From: an uncultured bacterium
GTDB lineage: Bacteria > Chloroflexota > UBA5177 > JANWHV01
Direction of reading: 5' to 3'
Assembly: GCA_963827235.1 (NCBI GenBank)
Contig: CAWHAE010000012.1
Coordinates: 896,001 to 960,000, forward strand
DNA: 64,000 nucleotides
Part shown: positions 56,610-63,430 of the stretch, piece by piece
Numbering within the stretch: the stretch's first letter is position 1
How the letters are laid out: each line of letters starts with the position of its first letter
Notes under the pieces: model-generated
The model's database searches: none
What the model was told of the DNA's origin: nothing
The model's input: only the letters and a program-made list of their open reading frames with translations
Made by a program: the position numbers and the translations under genes

Positions 56610-58184
56610 CTAGTAGGCGCCGTTGCGCGTGATCACTGCCAGGATGGTGCGCAGCATGATCTTGATGTCGAGCGTCAGCGACCAGTTGTCAATATAGTAG
56701 GTATCCATGATGATGATCTCTTCGAAGCTCTCGATGTTGCTTCTGCCGCTGACCTGCCAGTATCCGGTAATGCCGCCTATCACCTCGAGCCGCTTGAAGT
56801 GGTGCGGCGCGTAGTTCGCCACCTCGCTGGGCAGCGGAGGGCGCGGCCCGACCAGGCTCATGTCACCCCGCAGCACGTTGATCAGCTGCGGCAGCTCGTC
56901 GAGCGATAGCCTGCGCAGAGAGCGGCCCACGCGGGTGCGCCGGGGGTCGTTCCTGTCCTTGAAGATCCGCGGGTCGGCGATTCCCTTCTCCGCGATCAGC
57001 TTGTCCAGCATCTCGCCGGCATTGACGTACATCGAGCGGAACTTCAGGAACGTGAACGGCTTGCCGCCTTTGCCGATGCGCTGTTCCTTATAGAGAATGG
57101 GCCCACGAGAGTCCAGCTTGACGGCAAGCGCGATCAGCAGGAGCACCGGCGAAGCGATCAGCAATGCCAGACCGGCCAGCACGATGTCGGCCGTGCGCTT
57201 AACGGCGCGCGCCACGCGGCTATGCCGCCTGCGTTCCACGTCGATCAGCGGAATCCCGGCAATGTGATCCATGCGCACGCGGGAGAGACTGAGCTCGAAG
57301 AGATCCGGCACCAGCTTCACTGCCACGTCGGCCGCTTCACAGTGCGCGCAGATCGCTGCGATGTCGTCGTGATTGGTAGCAGGCAGGGTGATGATCACCT
57401 CGTCAATCGCCATGTCGCGCACGATGTCGGTAATGCGAGAGACGTCGCCCAGGCAGGCGAAGCGACCGAAGTTAGCGTACGCGCACGACGCGTCTTCCGG
57501 CGAGACCTCGTCGAGCGAGAGCAGCGATTCGCGCACGAAGCCGATCAGGTGGTAGCCGTGATTCCGCTTGGTGAGTAAGTTCTGCATCACCATCTTGCCG
57601 ACGGGCGTTGCGCCCGCCACCACCACGCGCCGCGTATTCCAGCCGCTGCCGTGCAGCCGGGCCAGGAGAGCATACAGGAAAAAGCGACCGAGAATCAGCA
57701 GTGCCACCAGCAAGAACCAGGCATAGACGATGACCAGGCGCGATTCGACTTTGACCGGCATATAAGCGGTGACGATGGATATGAGGCCGACCCCGACCAG
57801 GCTGCTGCGGCACAGGTCGAGCAGCTCGTCGGGGAGGTCTCGTCCCAGCCTCAGCCTATAGGCCCCACCGAAAATCAGGCTCAGGCTCTCGATCACGCTG
57901 AACACGATGCCGAATGGGATCCAGTCCTGAAATGGGACCCAGACAAGACCGCGCTCCACGGGCACCCACTGTACGACGTAGCGCAACATGTACGCGCAGC
58001 AAAATGCCAGCCAGATCAGCGTCGAGTCCAGAACGGCGCCGATCACCGCCAGCTCGAGGCGAGCACGTCGCTGTGCCTCCGGCAACACTCGGGTGAGACC
58101 GGCCCGCCCCGGATCCCCGCTCAGCACCTCGATGCGCGTTGTGACGGCAAGCGACGGATCGACAATTGTAGGAGCCTGTGCCAT
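56610..58184 (-). CDS. Priming polyprenyl-phosphate sugar phosphotransferase (WcaJ/CpsE-like)
   Basis: KRTADI, KFRSM, DPRRTRVG..LR..SLDELPQL.NVL.GDMSLVGPRP, GITG.WQVSGRS. Confidence 0.95.
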   Translation of the reverse strand: MAQAPTIVDPSLAVTTRIEVLSGDPGRAGLTRVLPEAQRRARLELAVIGAVLDSTLIWLAFCCAYMLRYVVQWVPVERGLVWVPFQDWIPFGIVFSVIESLSLIFGGAYRLRLGRDLPDELLDLCRSSLVGVGLISIVTAYMPVKVESRLVIVYAWFLLVALLILGRFFLYALLARLHGSGWNTRRVVVAGATPVGKMVMQNLLTKRNHGYHLIGFVRESLLSLDEVSPEDASCAYANFGRFACLGDVSRITDIVRDMAIDEVIITLPATNHDDIAAICAHCEAADVAVKLVPDLFELSLSRVRMDHIAGIPLIDVERRRHSRVARAVKRTADIVLAGLALLIASPVLLLIALAVKLDSRGPILYKEQRIGKGGKPFTFLKFRSMYVNAGEMLDKLIAEKGIADPRIFKDRNDPRRTRVGRSLRRLSLDELPQLINVLRGDMSLVGPRPPLPSEVANYAPHHFKRLEVIGGITGYWQVSGRSNIESFEEIIIMDTYYIDNWSLTLDIKIMLRTILAVITRNGAY

Positions 58185-58185
58185 G

Positions 58186-59331
58186 CTAGGCGCCCTCCAG
58201 CGCTTCGGCGTAGATCTCGGCCACCTGTTCCGTTGTGCGGCACCAGTCGAACCGGCTCGACTGAGCGAGCCCGCGGCGTACGAGGTCCGCGCGAAGTTCG
58301 CCGTCGCCCGCCATACGGCACAGTGCCTCGGCCATGCATCCTCCGTCCTCGGCATCCACGAGGATCGCTGCATCGCCTGCCACCTCGACCAGGCTGCTGT
58401 TGCGTGCCGTGATCACCGGGCAGCCGCAGGCCATCGCTTCCGCCACGGGCAGGCCAAAGCCTTCGTAGAGCGACGGGTACACGAACGCCGCCGCGGATCT
58501 GTACCAGAGCGGTTGATCCTCGTCCGCCACGTAACCGGGGAACTGCACGCAGTCCTCGAGGCCAAGAGCCTTCACACGCTCGAAGATCTCCTCGTACAGC
58601 CAACCTTTGGCGCCGACCAGCACGAGCGGCCAGTCAACGCCCTTGAGACGGGCGGCATGGTAGGCGTCGACGAGGCGCACCAGGTTCTTGCGTGGCTCCA
58701 GCGTGCCCATAAAGAGAAAGTAGCGGTCGGGCAGCGCGTGCTCTTCGCGAAACCGAGCCAGGCGATCGTCGGCGAGCGGCTCGCGAAAGCGATCCTCCAC
58801 GCCAAGATAGGCCACGCGCACGCGCCGCTCGGGCACGCCGAGCAGCCGGACCACGTCGCGCTTGGTGTTCTGGGAGCTGGCGATCACGCGACGAGCGCCG
58901 CGCGCGCTGAGCCGCGTGAAGGTGGAGAGGTACCGGCGGCGTCCCGGCAGGAAACGCTCCGGGAACAGCAGAAAGCTCACGTCGTGAATCGTGACCACGC
59001 CGGGAATGCGCCTGGCGAGCGGTAGCACGTTCAGGGTGCCGTGAACCACGTCGATCCTGTGCCGGGTGAGAAGGGCGGGCAGGGCCGTCTGTTCCCACAG
59101 AATGCGCTGCGCGGGCTTCTCCGTGTTGAGCCTGCTGCGTACCACCTCAAAGCGGCCGTCGCCGTGCAGCGACAGCGCCGTACAATCGGCGTTGGTAAAG
59201 ATGGTGTACTGGTTGGGTGTGGAGAGCGACGGCAGCGTGCGGAGCAGGTGATAGATGAAAGCTGCTGCACCGGCGTTGCGATACGTTCGCGCGAAGGTCA
59301 ACAATTGCGCATTGATACCGATCCGCGCCAT
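58186..59331 (-). CDS. GT4 glycosyltransferase
   Basis: VVTIHD, GTLEPRKN, FVYPSLYEGFGLP..EAMACG. Confidence 0.95.
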   Translation of the reverse strand: MARIGINAQLLTFARTYRNAGAAAFIYHLLRTLPSLSTPNQYTIFTNADCTALSLHGDGRFEVVRSRLNTEKPAQRILWEQTALPALLTRHRIDVVHGTLNVLPLARRIPGVVTIHDVSFLLFPERFLPGRRRYLSTFTRLSARGARRVIASSQNTKRDVVRLLGVPERRVRVAYLGVEDRFREPLADDRLARFREEHALPDRYFLFMGTLEPRKNLVRLVDAYHAARLKGVDWPLVLVGAKGWLYEEIFERVKALGLEDCVQFPGYVADEDQPLWYRSAAAFVYPSLYEGFGLPVAEAMACGCPVITARNSSLVEVAGDAAILVDAEDGGCMAEALCRMAGDGELRADLVRRGLAQSSRFDWCRTTEQVAEIYAEALEGA

Positions 59332-60122
59332 ACCACTCCCGCGTGACCACGACGCCAAGGACGCCCGATCTTCACCGCCTTCTCCGCTCGCGCCGGAGGC
59401 GCATGCGACTCCGGCCGAGCGTGGACAATGATGTGAGTATACCGCGAGCGGCCGTGACGGCACGCCGATCCGGCTTGCCACTACAGATTCGCCCTGGCCA
59501 CCGTGGTCATGCAATAGTTGTCTCTACCTGTGGCCAGATTACAGTTCTACGGCACGGACACGTACATGCTCATCGCCAGACTGCCCCACTTGTACTTAGG
59601 CGACTGTGAGCTGAGTGGGCTGTGTCTAGCCGGCCCATGGGGACCGCCCTTGTAGGTGGCCGCCGGCATCGTGGTTCCTGCACCGAGCGCACGGTTAGTC
59701 CCACCACAGTTCCAGCAGGCGCGCCGGCCGGTCGTCGTGCAGGCTGGGACATACGAAATCGACGTACCCCCTGCTCGACCACCTCCAGCAGGTCGAGTTG
59801 TAGCTGCTGCACCCAGGCTTGCAAGTCCTCGAGATGCAAGGCGTCCCGTAGGAGGAACAAGCGGTGGCCGCCTCGAACGTGATGGGCAAGCCGCCTACGT
59901 GCCCATACGTCGGGTGCGCCAGGTGTTGCGGTGCGCCGCCTTACCCGGGCGCAGACCTCGGCAGCCGAGCTTTACCGCCTGAAGCCGCTCACTCATGTTG
60001 CGATTGGGGCATACGGCATGTAGGGCGAGGCCATGTCGTCGAGTGCCGGTAGGGAGCGTCCGGCATGGATGAGCCTGCACCGGCAGCCGAAGGCGGAGCG
60101 TGGCTGGCGCGCTGGCAGCAGC

Positions 60123-60184
60123 TTGCCCCTCGTCCTTTGGCCCTGATTGACAGGGGGCAACTCGAATCGTAGCATGGGGGCAAG
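60123..60184 (+). promoter_or_regulatory. Sigma70 promoter of the LCCL-Hcp operon with GGGGCAA repeats
   Basis: TTGACA(60147)-17 nt-TAGCAT(60170); TTGCCCC at 60123 (inverted); GGGGGCAA at 60153 and 60176. Confidence 0.65.
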
Positions 60185-60253
60185 TCTGCTTGAGCTCGCT
60201 GAAGGACGAGCCCAAACGGCCGTCCCAGCGAAGATTGAGTCCGGGAGGTGCCT

Positions 60254-61504
60254 ATGGCGCTGCGACTGGCTCGGCTGGCGTTTGCCTCACTGATCATCGT
60301 ACCGCTTGCGCTCCTCAACCGCTCTCCCGGTCAGCTCTCCTCGGCAAGAGCGTCGAGCGCGACCGGCATCGCATCGGCTCGACACGCTGCGCTGTCCAAC
60401 GCCGCCGTCAGTCGCGTCACAGCGGCGGCTCTGCCTGCCTTGACGGTGCCCGGTGGGGCGGACTGGGCGGCATCGGCGAAGGACGTGCCCGGCGATGCCG
60501 GAACACAGTCTCTGTTCGTCTGCCCCGCCAAAGGTACGCTAGACCAACCAGTGTGGGGCACAGACACCTATACCGATGATTCGGCCGTCTGTGTGGCCGC
60601 TGTCCACACCGGGGCGATCACGGTGGACGACGGCGGCTTCGTCACCATCGAGATTCGACCGGGGCTCGACAGCTACGCGGGCAGCACGCGCAACGGCGTG
60701 ACGAGTGAGGACTTTGGCTCATGGGATCGGAGCTTTGCCATCGTCACTGCCATCAGAGGCAGTGGCGAGGACGGCGTGGCCGTGGGAGGCGGCTCGTGGG
60801 ACGCGACGGCCACGGATTTTGCGGACTCGACAGGATCCCGGTACCTGTACCTTTGCCCACCGGGTGGCCACGCCAGGCGTGTATGGGGCACGTACACCTA
60901 CACATCCGACTCATCTGTCTGCACGGCAGCTGTGCACATAGGACTCATCACCGCCGCGGCCGGCGGCTACGTGACGGTGCTCTTGGGTGGCGGTGCTGAC
61001 TCGTTCGAAGGCTCAGCACGGAACGGCGTGACGACCAGCGACTATGGTTCATGGGGAGCCACATTCACGTTTCCCTCTGCGCCGCTACCGGCCACAGCGA
61101 CCGCCTCAGCGGCTCAGACTGTGCCTTCGACGAGTCCGTCTGCGACACCAACCGCGACGGCAACTCCTGCGCCGGTCCTGGCGCCGCAGATCCGGGTGAG
61201 CTATCACTACCTCGCAGGGTACCGCGCGATCGTGGCAGGCACAGTGCTGCCCGTGCGCGTGATGGCCACGCCGGGCAGCACTGTGACGGTACGCATATCG
61301 CTGCGGCTAGATGAGCCGAACTCGTCTGCAGTCGTGTTCAAACGGCAGAACAGTGTCAAGATCGGCGACATGGGCGTCGCCACGGCGGCGGTGTACATAG
61401 ACACCCGACCGACGCGGTGGGAGTTCGCCGTGCTGACCGTTTCGGCTATCGCGGCCGATGGTAGTAGCGATACGCAGCATCTGCAGGTCGTCATCTTTCC
61501 TTGA
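60254..61504 (+). CDS. Secreted protein: two LCCL domains, Thr/Pro linker, beta-sandwich-like C-terminus
   Basis: Signal peptide; CP...VWGTDTYTDDSAVCVAAVHTG...GSTRNGVTS and CP...VWGTYTYTSDSSVCTAAVHIG...GSARNGVTT. Confidence 0.88.
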   Translation: MALRLARLAFASLIIVPLALLNRSPGQLSSARASSATGIASARHAALSNAAVSRVTAAALPALTVPGGADWAASAKDVPGDAGTQSLFVCPAKGTLDQPVWGTDTYTDDSAVCVAAVHTGAITVDDGGFVTIEIRPGLDSYAGSTRNGVTSEDFGSWDRSFAIVTAIRGSGEDGVAVGGGSWDATATDFADSTGSRYLYLCPPGGHARRVWGTYTYTSDSSVCTAAVHIGLITAAAGGYVTVLLGGGADSFEGSARNGVTTSDYGSWGATFTFPSAPLPATATASAAQTVPSTSPSATPTATATPAPVLAPQIRVSYHYLAGYRAIVAGTVLPVRVMATPGSTVTVRISLRLDEPNSSAVVFKRQNSVKIGDMGVATAAVYIDTRPTRWEFAVLTVSAIAADGSSDTQHLQVVIFP

Positions 61505-61579
61505 GAGGTGACGGAAAGTCCGCAGTATCGAAGGCGCGCATGACTGCGTAGCAGGCAAGGAAGAAGGGAGAACGTGACC

Positions 61580-62089
61580 GTGGCCTATGAGTTTTACCTC
61601 CAGCTCGTCGGACGGAAGACGGGCCAAATCAAAGGTGCGTCGACCAGAAAGGGCTATGAGGGCTGGATACCGGGCCTCCACATGTCCCACTCCATCGTCT
61701 CCCCGCGAGATGCGCAGAGTGGCTTGCCGACCGGCCAGCGCTTGCACAGGCCGTTCACCTTCATCAAAGCCTGGGATGCAAGCAGCGCCTTGCTGCTGAA
61801 CATGCTCTGTACAAATGAGGAGGTATCGAAGTGCACCATTGACTTCGTGCATACGGTGATGGTACCGGGCGGCGCGTCACTGCAGCCGTACTTCACGATT
61901 CAACTCACAGACGCCAACTTTGCGTCGTATGACGCATTCACCGCGAACGCCGATCAGCTGAACCTGTACGACGCCGAAGACCTGGAGGAGTGGTCCCTTA
62001 CCTACCAGAGTATCGACTGGTCCGTGCCATCCGGGATCTCGGCCACCGATGACCGGGTACGAATGTCGCCCGCCACATTGGGCAGTTGA
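61580..62089 (+). CDS. hcp: Hcp/TssD-family tube protein (orphan)
   Basis: AYEFY..L.G.K.G.IKG.S, SPRDAQSGLPTGQRLHRPFTF.K.WDASS.LL, TNE, PYFTI.LTDA, EEWSLTYQSI.W. Confidence 0.9.
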   Translation: MAYEFYLQLVGRKTGQIKGASTRKGYEGWIPGLHMSHSIVSPRDAQSGLPTGQRLHRPFTFIKAWDASSALLLNMLCTNEEVSKCTIDFVHTVMVPGGASLQPYFTIQLTDANFASYDAFTANADQLNLYDAEDLEEWSLTYQSIDWSVPSGISATDDRVRMSPATLGS

Positions 62090-62105
62090 CAGGGGGATAC
62101 AAGCG

Positions 62106-62657
62106 ATGAACGATATCGAGAAGGCGCTGTATGGGCTCTCCGAGCGAGTTGCAGCGCTGGAGGTCGAGAACGCTCGGCTGCGTGCCGAGCACCACGGACG
62201 GACTCAGGCGGTCAGTGGAACGGCCACGTATAGCCGGCGCGGTCTGCTGGCCGGGAGCGCCGGGATGCTCGGCGCCGTGGCGGCCGCAGTGACGCAGGTG
62301 CCTGTGGCAGCCGGTGCCGCTCCCGCGTCGAACGAGGGGGTCGTACAGGCCACGCAGTACCGTGAGCCGCACATCCTCGGCACCCGAGTGCGGCTGACGC
62401 CTCAGCACGGGGGCGGCGCCTACTCCGCACGCTACGTCTGGGACATGGATGGAACCTTCGCCGGTGACGAGCCCCCAGCCGTGATCGCGGCTGCCTCAGA
62501 CGACTATCACGGGAGCAGTGAGCGCGCCGAGCCCACGATTGCCGTTGCGCTACGGCGGAGCGGGCGTACGTGGCAGGCAGAGATAGTAGTGAACCACGTC
62601 GGCCACCTGGCAGCCGAAGTGACGTTGAACGCGATCGCATTCGGCTCGCGGTCGTAG
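62106..62657 (+). CDS. Hypothetical protein: N-terminal coiled coil, twin-arginine-like signal, small beta domain
   Basis: LSERVAALEVENARLRAE; SRRGLL followed by a hydrophobic run and AGA-AP; SD AGGGGG. Confidence 0.75.
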   Translation: MNDIEKALYGLSERVAALEVENARLRAEHHGRTQAVSGTATYSRRGLLAGSAGMLGAVAAAVTQVPVAAGAAPASNEGVVQATQYREPHILGTRVRLTPQHGGGAYSARYVWDMDGTFAGDEPPAVIAAASDDYHGSSERAEPTIAVALRRSGRTWQAEIVVNHVGHLAAEVTLNAIAFGSRS

Positions 62658-62752
62658 CTCACAGAGCATCCGCTCAAGCAAGTCCAAGAATCCAGCGTCC
62701 GAGACGAGGGCGCCAGACGCGTGCGAGCCGGTGAATTCACATGTCAGGTCGC

Positions 62753-63430
62753 TCAAACGCGCTGTGCCCGCTTCAACTCGACGATGATGCCCCAATCATC
62801 GGTCTCGCCAATGTTTTCGACGTCGTGCCAGCCTCCAGCCGACCAGTTGGCGACGCCCTGGCGGATGTCCGTCTCCCGCGCCGTGCCGTCAGGCAAGGAG
62901 AAGCGCACCCGTGCGGTGCTCAGGGCATAGGCCACGCACGGCGGGTGCGAGTGCATCCCGGTGCTCTCGCCAGGCCTGATTCGCAGTTCCAGCACGCGCA
63001 CCGCGTCATTATCGAGCAGCACGGTGTGGTCCTTCGGCGGCACGGAGGCAGCGGGAGCAGCGGCATCGGGCATCACCGCCTGCGTGCTGAAATCCACGGC
63101 GACGTACGGCGCTTCGCCGATCACCCAGGTGTCATGGCCTGCCGGTATGGCGAAGGCATCCCCCGCCGCCACCTCGCGCTCGGTACCGTCGGCCATACGA
63201 ATTCCGGCCCGGCCCGACACGACGTAGCCGGTGTGCGGGATCATGCACAGGTCGGTCCCCGCCGCCGGCCTGGCATGCTCCGTCCAGCGAAAACCTGGCT
63301 GGAAGGTGACCCGATTCGCCACGGTCTCGCCAAGTTGGATTACCTCGACGCGGGCCATGCTTCCCATCGGGAAGGTCTGGTCCGGCACATCAAAGCTCTT
63401 GGCCAGGGTCAGGGTGGTCATGGTGGTCAT
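62753..63430 (-). CDS. Two-domain cupin protein
   Basis: FQPGFRW.EH..P.AGT..C...H.GYVVSG...IPAGHD.WV.G; second domain VLLDND.VRVLE...PGE...MHSHP...WHDVENIG. Confidence 0.85.
   Translation of the reverse strand: MTTMTTLTLAKSFDVPDQTFPMGSMARVEVIQLGETVANRVTFQPGFRWTEHARPAAGTDLCMIPHTGYVVSGRAGIRMADGTEREVAAGDAFAIPAGHDTWVIGEAPYVAVDFSTQAVMPDAAAPAASVPPKDHTVLLDNDAVRVLELRIRPGESTGMHSHPPCVAYALSTARVRFSLPDGTARETDIRQGVANWSAGGWHDVENIGETDDWGIIVELKRAQRV

Follow-up and report, generated by a model that had tools for sequence, protein, structure and literature searches.

Hcp is treated as diagnostic for a type VI secretion system (T6SS), a machine of two-membrane bacteria. In orphan hcp-effector islands, Hcp serves as the chaperone and carrier of cargo held in its lumen; such islands rely on a T6SS encoded at another place in the genome, and the effectors in them carry no signals for the general secretory (Sec) or twin-arginine translocation (Tat) pathways. 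Extracellular contractile injection systems (eCIS) build their tubes from a family other than Hcp. Abby et al. 2016 found no diderm-type secretion loci in genomes of one-membrane (monoderm) bacteria (PMC4793230). Hetero-oligomers can be exported by Tat in the folded state with a signal on just one of their subunits, E. coli PaoABC being an example (PMC4273604, PMC10924467). Here, we describe an Hcp in a window of 64,000 nucleotides (nt) from an uncultured Chloroflexota bacterium (assembly GCA_963827235.1, contig CAWHAE010000012.1, positions 896,001 to 960,000). Its gene, B, is the middle one of a three-gene cassette: gene A encodes a predicted secreted protein with two LCCL domains, and gene C encodes a small lineage-restricted protein with a predicted coiled coil and a twin-arginine segment. 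An earlier note on this DNA took the cassette for a candidate non-T6SS Hcp system, perhaps exported through Tat. We find that it is very probably an Hcp module that is conserved and functional and does not depend on a contractile machine. Our literature search found no description of an Hcp with Tat or Sec signals, nor of an Hcp in monoderms; most subscription journals lay outside its coverage, so this statement is provisional.

By its profile matches, B is a true full-length member of the Hcp/TssD family. It matches Pfam T6SS_HCP (PF05638) with an E value of 2.7e-25 and 89.6 bits (cut-off 23.5) over profile positions 1-128 of 129, and TIGR03344 with 88.8 bits (cut-off 58.9). Compared with solved structures, the Hcp family profile finds P. 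aeruginosa Hcp3 (3he1, E 5.3e-40), V. cholerae Hcp (5mxn, E 2.6e-34), and 1y12 (E 1.5e-17). The open frame around B spans 181 amino acids (aa), and because only about 10 open codons lie upstream of the start, a signal peptide would not fit. In the public gene call (P0010), the start is GTG 61580 and the product has 169 aa. Hcps from the two-membrane phyla Myxococcota, Bacteroidota, Chlorobiota, and Fibrobacterota share 40-47% identity with B. In a largely unresolved 67-row Hcp tree, 33 of the 64 inner branches are open, and B may descend from either exported or plain Hcps. PHROGs returned no match for A, B, or C; the sole match there was a weak one, of P0072, a protein discussed below, to a family of unknown function. 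Viral contigs gave two weak Hcp-domain matches only.

We searched the host genome (7.98 Mb in 21 contigs, 95.9% complete, 9% contamination) for the families of contractile machines over all six reading frames. The genome gave no match to VipB/TssC (TssB itself was not searched), to VgrG/Phage_GPD, to Phage_sheath_1, to the gp25-type baseplate (GPW_gp25, TssE), or to PAAR. Nor was TssC found in any of five related Hcp-bearing genomes of the phylum (0/5). The earlier note had reported that vgrG, PAAR, tssB/C, baseplate, clpV, and phage genes do not occur in the window; since none of the families searched here is found in the whole genome, none is in the window, and no complete T6SS or eCIS to which this Hcp could belong turned up. 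Furthermore, the host has a one-membrane gene set: TatC is present (E 4.4e-54), and there is no detectable Omp85. The Omp85/BamA search that found nothing in this genome was positive in seven two-membrane reference genomes; genes for lipopolysaccharide were not searched.

We count four genes for Hcp in the genome and three full-length genes of the C family, and each of the latter lies within 100 nt downstream of an Hcp gene (3/3). The window's own locus, on contig C12, reads LCCL - Hcp - C. On contig C9, the order is NHL propeller, an Hcp-like protein (147 aa, Pfam E 2e-5), a C paralog (39% identity), a methyltransferase, a tandem double Hcp, and a sigma factor of the extracytoplasmic function (ECF) type; on contig C10, it is Hcp, a C paralog (31% identity), and a CHAP-domain protein. 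The fourth Hcp gene, the tandem double one, is about 1 kb from the C9 C-family gene. It encodes 292 aa with two Pfam-matching stretches (E 6e-14; L005:7252-8130 (-), the same as G000:C9:138251-139132, G000 being the host genome) and adjoins the ECF-type sigma factor and a 351-aa Rieske-domain protein (L005:6493-7080 (-), L005:5775-6830 (-)). A hidden Markov model (HMM) of the N-terminal leader of C, run over the six-frame open reading frames (ORFs) of the genome, recovered only the three C-family genes (E about 1e-22) and one ordinary Tat signal (E 5e-5). One more ORF, of 101 aa, carries the C-family sandwich domain only (C18:261194-261499, in L007 = G000:C18:252000-271000; profile 85-182, E 1.2e-27); having neither a leader nor a nearby Hcp, it is probably a truncated remnant.

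The pair also recurs outside this genome. The C family is present in all four other genomes of the genus (4/4); in 56 further genomes from the class and phylum there was no solid match, and one weak match covers the RR region only. It is rare: nine word-indexed matches, itself included, among 5.8 billion proteins, and nine clusters below E 1e-30 among 1.84 billion representatives. We did not find it in viral contigs or PHROGs, and the first scan of species-representative genome contigs returned no relative. Hcp adjoins the C-family gene at G002:C701 and G001:C8 and is 2.3 kb off at G003:C141. Among congener and metagenomic C loci with enough flanking sequence, Hcp is within 2.3 kb in 5 of 7, and with the host's own loci in 8 of 10; two loci, G004:C217 and L031, were left out of the count because their flanks are too short. 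The trees of C and of its partner Hcps agree on two groups, (C12, L030, L032) and (C10, G002:C701). The Hcp of the C10 locus, compared with its G001 ortholog (87% identity), has a ratio of nonsynonymous to synonymous substitution rates (dN/dS) of 0.15 at a dS of 0.46.

Of the two partners that the earlier note had placed with Hcp, the C-type protein recurs beside it at all three copies in this genome, in congeners, and on two metagenomic contigs. The LCCL partner holds up in part: an ortholog precedes Hcp on both metagenomic contigs with upstream sequence (L030 and L032; 2/2), which read [double LCCL + BNR propeller] - Hcp - C, but the paralogous pairs carry NHL or CHAP proteins instead. The L030 protein is 56% identical to A over the LCCL pair (E 3e-82) and 35% identical over 144 aa of the C-terminal domain (E 2e-15), with a BNR/Ycf48-like propeller of about 280 aa inserted between the two. 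Because the LCCL proteins are orthologous at both ends, the LCCL-Hcp-C trio recurs within the orthologous group. At paralogous Hcp-C loci, the third partner varies among NHL, CHAP, and, in three congener loci, DUF6345. The CHAP neighbor at C10, of the peptidoglycan-hydrolase type, is seen again in G003, and a methyltransferase follows the C paralog at C9 and precedes the C-like gene at G002:C60. The DUF6345-matching proteins (572-754 aa) are convergent to the C-like gene (L025:14-1729 (+), L026:8475-10685 (-), L027:133-2394 (+)). Those of L026 and L027 have signal-like N-termini, and the L025 ORF begins at the contig edge; DUF6345 was not found in the host genome. Judged by gene order and sequence, the Hcp-C pair is the conserved core of the cassette.

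What, then, is C? No Pfam family matches it, Tat-signal families included, and the ESM Atlas gave no usable match. Its match to the Tat-target model TIGR02811 (E 2.7e-4, 21.2 bits) is below that model's threshold (cut-off 48.45). We modeled C with AlphaFold2 (AF2) on an 11-sequence alignment (mean predicted local distance difference test score [pLDDT] 74.5). The N-terminal helix has a leucine-zipper-like pattern of L11, V15, L18, N22, and L25, in which the Asn is nearly invariant. Residues 31-73 are modeled as disordered, and within them lies the twin-arginine motif: S43-R44-R45-x-L47-L48 is invariant in the 11-sequence family alignment, and R44, R45, and L48 are invariant in both alignments. 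In the family, the motif is followed by an uncharged stretch of 16-38 residues whose best 19-residue Kyte-Doolittle window scores 1.5-1.9 (1.61 in C), and Ala-rich AxA-like sites come after the hydrophobic stretch. C thus has both features of a twin-arginine signal, S/T-R-R-x-F/L-L and a moderately hydrophobic stretch, and residues 43-76 would be either a Tat-type signal or a signal-anchor.

The rest of C is modeled as a beta-sandwich. Structure alignment places it near Helix pomatia agglutinin (2ccv_A; Z 8.5, root-mean-square deviation 2.3 Å over 84 of 99 residues), the C-terminal tip of the phage LKA1 tailspike (gp49, 4ru4_A; Z 8.2), the discoidin I lectin domain (2w94_A; Z 7.7), SLL-2 (Z 7.7), and the feet of R-type pyocin fibers (Z 6.5-6.8; R2 pyocin fiber 6cl6_A, Z 6.8), values which, against a fold-alignment background of Z 7-8, are at a level where only the common arrangement may be shared. 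Foldseek's best match is the R1 pyocin fiber (6cl5_A, E 8.8e-4). Sequence identity to the fold matches is 7-18%. The matches are coherent, all being carbohydrate-binding tips, and on this model we call the domain lectin-like because it resembles them, without assigning it to the H-type lectins.

The leader of C is found in front of other domains, Hcp among them. A profile search with C returned proteins that match only its first ~80 residues and have other C-terminal domains behind. Four of them (P0054, P0056, P0070, and P0084) combine the coiled coil and RR segment with a full Hcp domain (Pfam T6SS_HCP, E 1e-25 to 3e-16). A search with P0054 found 28 such leader-Hcp fusions, of 242-272 aa, among the 120 clusters listed. 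They begin with a helical N-terminus rich in Leu, Glu, and Arg, continue with [ST]RRxLL and a stretch rich in Gly and Ala, and end with Hcp. Every one of them comes from metagenomes, and those that have a name are labeled only "Hcp." The reverse profile (A5) matches the N-termini of the C paralogs (E 1e-12 to 3e-7). B as a split-off half of such a fused gene was considered and rejected: here the order is Hcp and then leader, and C has a C-terminal domain of its own. The C-type leader also precedes other passengers (P0064, P0067, P0072, P0073, P0085, P0071, P0075, P0078, and P0081). Several of these are Gly/Thr/Asn-rich and end in a conserved ...LFVDxSxRLWFCKGGTxWxQL, two are very acidic, and that of P0081 matches Pfam Beta_helix below the cut-off (E 2.6e-4). 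From its sequence relatives, the coiled-coil/RR leader looks like a portable module.

Hcps with export sequences are found in the same phylum and beyond. We found good matches to the Hcp domain, among 401 genomes of the phylum, only in the genus of the host (5/5) and in three others, and all three of these have N-terminal export or anchor sequences, one lipoprotein-like (LLAAC and a Ser/Thr linker) and two hydrophobic. The best 80 Hcp-domain loci in species-representative genomes come nearly all from two-membrane phyla. We inspected eight loci, and four have Sec-type N-termini before the Hcp domain, in Pirellulales, Nannocystaceae, Kiritimatiellales, and Phycisphaerae (L071, L086, L082, and L037). 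Exported Hcp would thus not be confined to the window's phylum. Two further Hcp-domain matches (L034 and L038, 51-53% identity) are in metagenome-assembled genomes labeled Nitrosopumilales and Thaumarchaeota and are either real or a binning error.

These data suggest a function of Hcp in the cell envelope that has not been described. Our best specific reading overall, which is tentative, is that the cassette forms an Hcp module that is directed to the envelope, independent of a T6SS, and tied to export by Tat. The Hcp of this lineage would act outside the cytoplasm. C would be targeted to the Tat translocase and then either released or anchored by an uncleaved signal; signal-less B would fold in the cytoplasm, bind C, and cross as a passenger in the "hitchhiker" mode of Tat. 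Outside, rings of Hcp would join with the LCCL protein and the lectin-like part of C in an assembly that binds glycans and sits on the cell wall or the layer of exopolysaccharide. Co-export of B with C, which we propose by analogy, is possible but somewhat doubtful. As for the earlier note's proposal, the non-T6SS part of it stands, since no T6SS or eCIS core gene was found and the neighbors recur, but export of B, its binding to either neighbor, and a role as a surface filament or cargo carrier are putative. Its idea of Tat export gains from the C-type leaders that are fused directly to Hcp domains elsewhere, but export of B itself would still be a step beyond them.

Several points weigh against this reading. 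C is not above the cut-off of any curated Tat-signal model, and the hydrophobicity of its RR segment (1.5-1.9) suits a Tat signal no better than it suits a weak anchor in the membrane. For Tat, a hexameric ring of Hcp would be a large passenger. The genome is 95.9% complete, with 9% contamination. Genes of the gp25 type occur in 3 of the 5 other Hcp-bearing genomes of the phylum, the congener G003 included, on contigs other than the Hcp contig (G003:C56:6071-6337, G035:C23:82979-83251, and G358:C13:70435-70707), and the group is therefore no stranger to contractile devices. Two of the 10 evaluable C loci have no nearby Hcp (G001:C10 and G002:C60). Both C-like genes of G001 (L022:8032-8640 (-), L023:7650-8240 (-)) change frame a few codons after SRR, and the Hcp next to a frameshifted one (L023:8243-8776) is intact and under purifying selection. 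Errors of long-read assembly in GC-rich DNA could explain the frameshifts, as could true decay that struck both copies at one position; if the frameshifts are real, Hcp can persist without C. Finally, the Hcp and C trees differ on the C9 and G003 copies, so that co-divergence is only partly supported.

One alternative keeps Hcp in the cytoplasm, as a dedicated chaperone or assembly factor that would bind the N-terminal helix of C before Tat targeting. It would account for the missing signal peptide of B, for the tight Hcp-C gene linkage, and for the unusually conserved helix ahead of the RR motif, which suggests a cytoplasmic binding partner; it would also resemble the proofreading chaperones that bind Tat signal peptides and echo the way Hcp holds T6SS effectors in its lumen. 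However, in the fusions the Hcp domain follows the RR/hydrophobic segment and is on the exported side, and other Hcps of the phylum have export or anchor sequences of their own. The fusion topology and these sequences argue for a site of action outside the cytoplasm, and we consider the chaperone explanation rather unlikely. Alternatively, C could stay in the membrane through an uncleaved Tat signal-anchor, N-terminus in and lectin out, with Hcp rings docked on its cytoplasmic coiled coil as a minimal envelope-spanning device that only one-membrane bacteria would have. The conserved zipper would then remain on the cytoplasmic side, the site of B synthesis; 19-residue windows of the hydrophobic stretch score up to 1.6-1.9, and the fused P0084 has a weak match to the Rieske Tat signal (PF10399, E 1.3e-4, below the cut-off), which serves as an anchor and is not cleaved. 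The Ala-rich AxA-like sites behind the hydrophobic stretch speak against this, as does the AF2 model, in which the segment is disordered rather than helical, and the neighboring "cargo" proteins, each with a Sec signal, could leave the cell with no new conduit. This makes a spanning device quite improbable.

The genes could also be leftovers of horizontally acquired orphan hcp-effector islands of a T6SS, either defunct or serving a contractile machine that the assembly missed. The identity of B to Hcps of two-membrane phyla, the imperfect completeness and contamination of the assembly, and the gp25 gene of G003 would all fit. However, five independent core markers are absent here, as is TssC from all five related Hcp-bearing genomes; Omp85 was not found in the genome; the frames are intact and exist as several diverged copies, with a dN/dS of 0.15 at the C10 locus; and the neighbors have Sec- or Tat-type signals, unlike type VI effectors. 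A leftover of this kind is very unlikely. Least probable of all is that the three genes are mere neighbors under one promoter with no common function. The third partner does vary by locus (LCCL, NHL, CHAP, or DUF6345), and the Hcp and C trees are only partly congruent, but in 8 Mb all three leader-bearing C genes come directly after an Hcp gene, the Hcp-C pair recurs across genomes, the leader is fused to Hcp in other organisms, and the LCCL protein of the conserved trio is orthologous at both ends.

The features of the cassette are collected in Table 1. They agree with the earlier note, which had described one consensus promoter ahead of three genes, a signal peptide, two LCCL domains, and a linker in A, a clear Hcp with no signal peptide, a coiled-coil/twin-arginine protein, and flanks of exopolysaccharide-type genes and a cupin.

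Table 1. Predicted features of the LCCL-Hcp-C cassette (positions in the 64,000-nt window)
Feature	Position	Strand	Basis or remark
Promoter-like site, sigma-70 type	60147..60175	+	TTGACA-17-TAGCAT, 10/12 consensus positions matched
Gene A, predicted secreted double-LCCL protein, 418 aa	60248..61504	+	
A residues 1-35, Sec-type signal peptide	60248..60352	+	by eye: basic n-region, hydrophobic core, ARA
A residues ~66-276, tandem LCCL pair	60443..61075	+	Pfam, best stretch 78-163
A residues ~277-310, Pro/Thr/Ala/Ser-rich linker	61076..61177	+	sequence
A residues ~311-418, C-terminal domain (~108 aa) common to the L030 ortholog	61178..61501	+	
Gene B, Hcp/TssD-family protein, 171 aa	61574..62089	+	
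Gene C, small lineage-restricted family, 183 aa	62106..62657	+	
C residues 3-30, leucine-zipper-like helix	62112..62195	+	AF2 pLDDT 76-90; conserved columns
C residues 43-76, SRRGLL motif, then Gly/Ala-rich, moderately hydrophobic stretch	62232..62333	+	
C residues 85-183, beta-sandwich	62358..62654	+	AF2 pLDDT 84-97

The promoter-like site is unique within 59500-63000, where shuffled sequence gives a mean of 0.5. Gene A could alternatively start at ATG 60254. Its N-terminus (MPMALRLARLAFASLIIVPLALL...SSARA) has the look of a Sec signal by eye, and Pfam LCCL matches the protein twice (E 6.8e-42, 142 bits; cut-off 22.6). Paralogs match its LCCL region over residues 66-154, 70-182, and 183-299. 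Gene C starts 16 nt past the stop of gene B and is preceded by GGGGGA. A search of 59500-63000 against Rfam returned no match, nor did PADLOC for A, B, or C. The upstream neighbors of the cassette encode a GT4 glycosyltransferase and a sugar transferase of the Bac_transf family, the downstream ones a cupin and a LuxR-type protein; because all of these flanking genes are on the minus strand, A, B, and C form a discrete co-directional unit. The Bac_transf priming sugar transferase and the GT4 glycosyltransferase (56610-59514 (-)) are divergent from the promoter region of the cassette. An exopolysaccharide link of the LCCL and lectin-like proteins to these flanking genes is possible; the glycosyltransferase flank is not common to the metagenomic LCCL-Hcp-C trios (L030 and L032).

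This locus matters because Hcp is kept under selection in genomes in which no T6SS machine was detected and because it is linked to a new coiled-coil/twin-arginine leader family, with leader-Hcp fusions in about 30 metagenomic clusters labeled "Hcp." If Hcp is exported by Tat or Sec, its ring fold also leads a life outside the cytoplasm, and to annotate a "T6SS" on the strength of hcp alone is misleading. If export is by Tat, Hcp would be a new kind of Tat passenger, and the cassette a simple three-gene test system; Tat-dependent export, if true, would be a categorically new use of Hcp. Further still, Hcp rings might be a Tat- or Sec-dependent external structure of one-membrane bacteria, unrelated to contractile machines, with the leader family delivering either Hcp itself (the fusions) or a lectin-like partner that carries Hcp (this locus). 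That would make an unrecognized class of surface assembly or conduit made from a phage-tail-tube fold, a generalization that we consider unlikely.

How does the cassette compare with known systems? Like the Hcp/TssD of a T6SS (3HE1, 5MXN), B is a full-length family member with no signal peptide, as in canonical Hcp. Unlike it, B has a Tat-like protein for a partner, related Hcp domains stand behind RR leaders or other export sequences, and no sheath, spike, baseplate, PAAR, or Omp85 gene was found in its genome. The likeness to orphan hcp-effector islands lies in a small hcp gene beside variable neighbors, a CHAP protein included; the difference is that no T6SS was detected in the host and that the A, NHL, and CHAP proteins start with signal-like hydrophobic N-termini. 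With the eCIS of one-membrane bacteria, it shares a tail-like part in a bacterium with no outer membrane, and some relatives have gp25-type genes. It differs in that sheath and gp25 were found neither in the host genome nor flanking the cassette (the eCIS tube family was not searched). By the defining features that we could look for in its gene content, the cassette is neither a T6SS nor an eCIS, nor does it qualify as an hcp-effector island.

The closest parallels to the partner protein lie elsewhere. As in Tat hitchhiker complexes, a signal-bearing protein, C, and a signal-less one, B, are encoded side by side in a genome with TatC. The known hitchhikers are cofactor-containing redox enzymes, whereas the putative passenger here is a ring-forming structural protein, and the signal of C, unlike theirs, has a conserved coiled coil in its n-region. 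The modeled fold of C residues 85-183 is like that of H-type lectins and of the tips of tailspikes and R-type pyocin fibers; unlike these, C has no Pfam match and its identity to them is as low as given above, and its family was found in neither viral contigs nor PHROGs. What is new in this locus, as far as sequence and model can tell, is that Hcp has a partner with LCCL domains, that the coiled-coil leader is conserved, that the Tat-type protein is modeled as lectin-like, and that direct fusions join this leader to Hcp.

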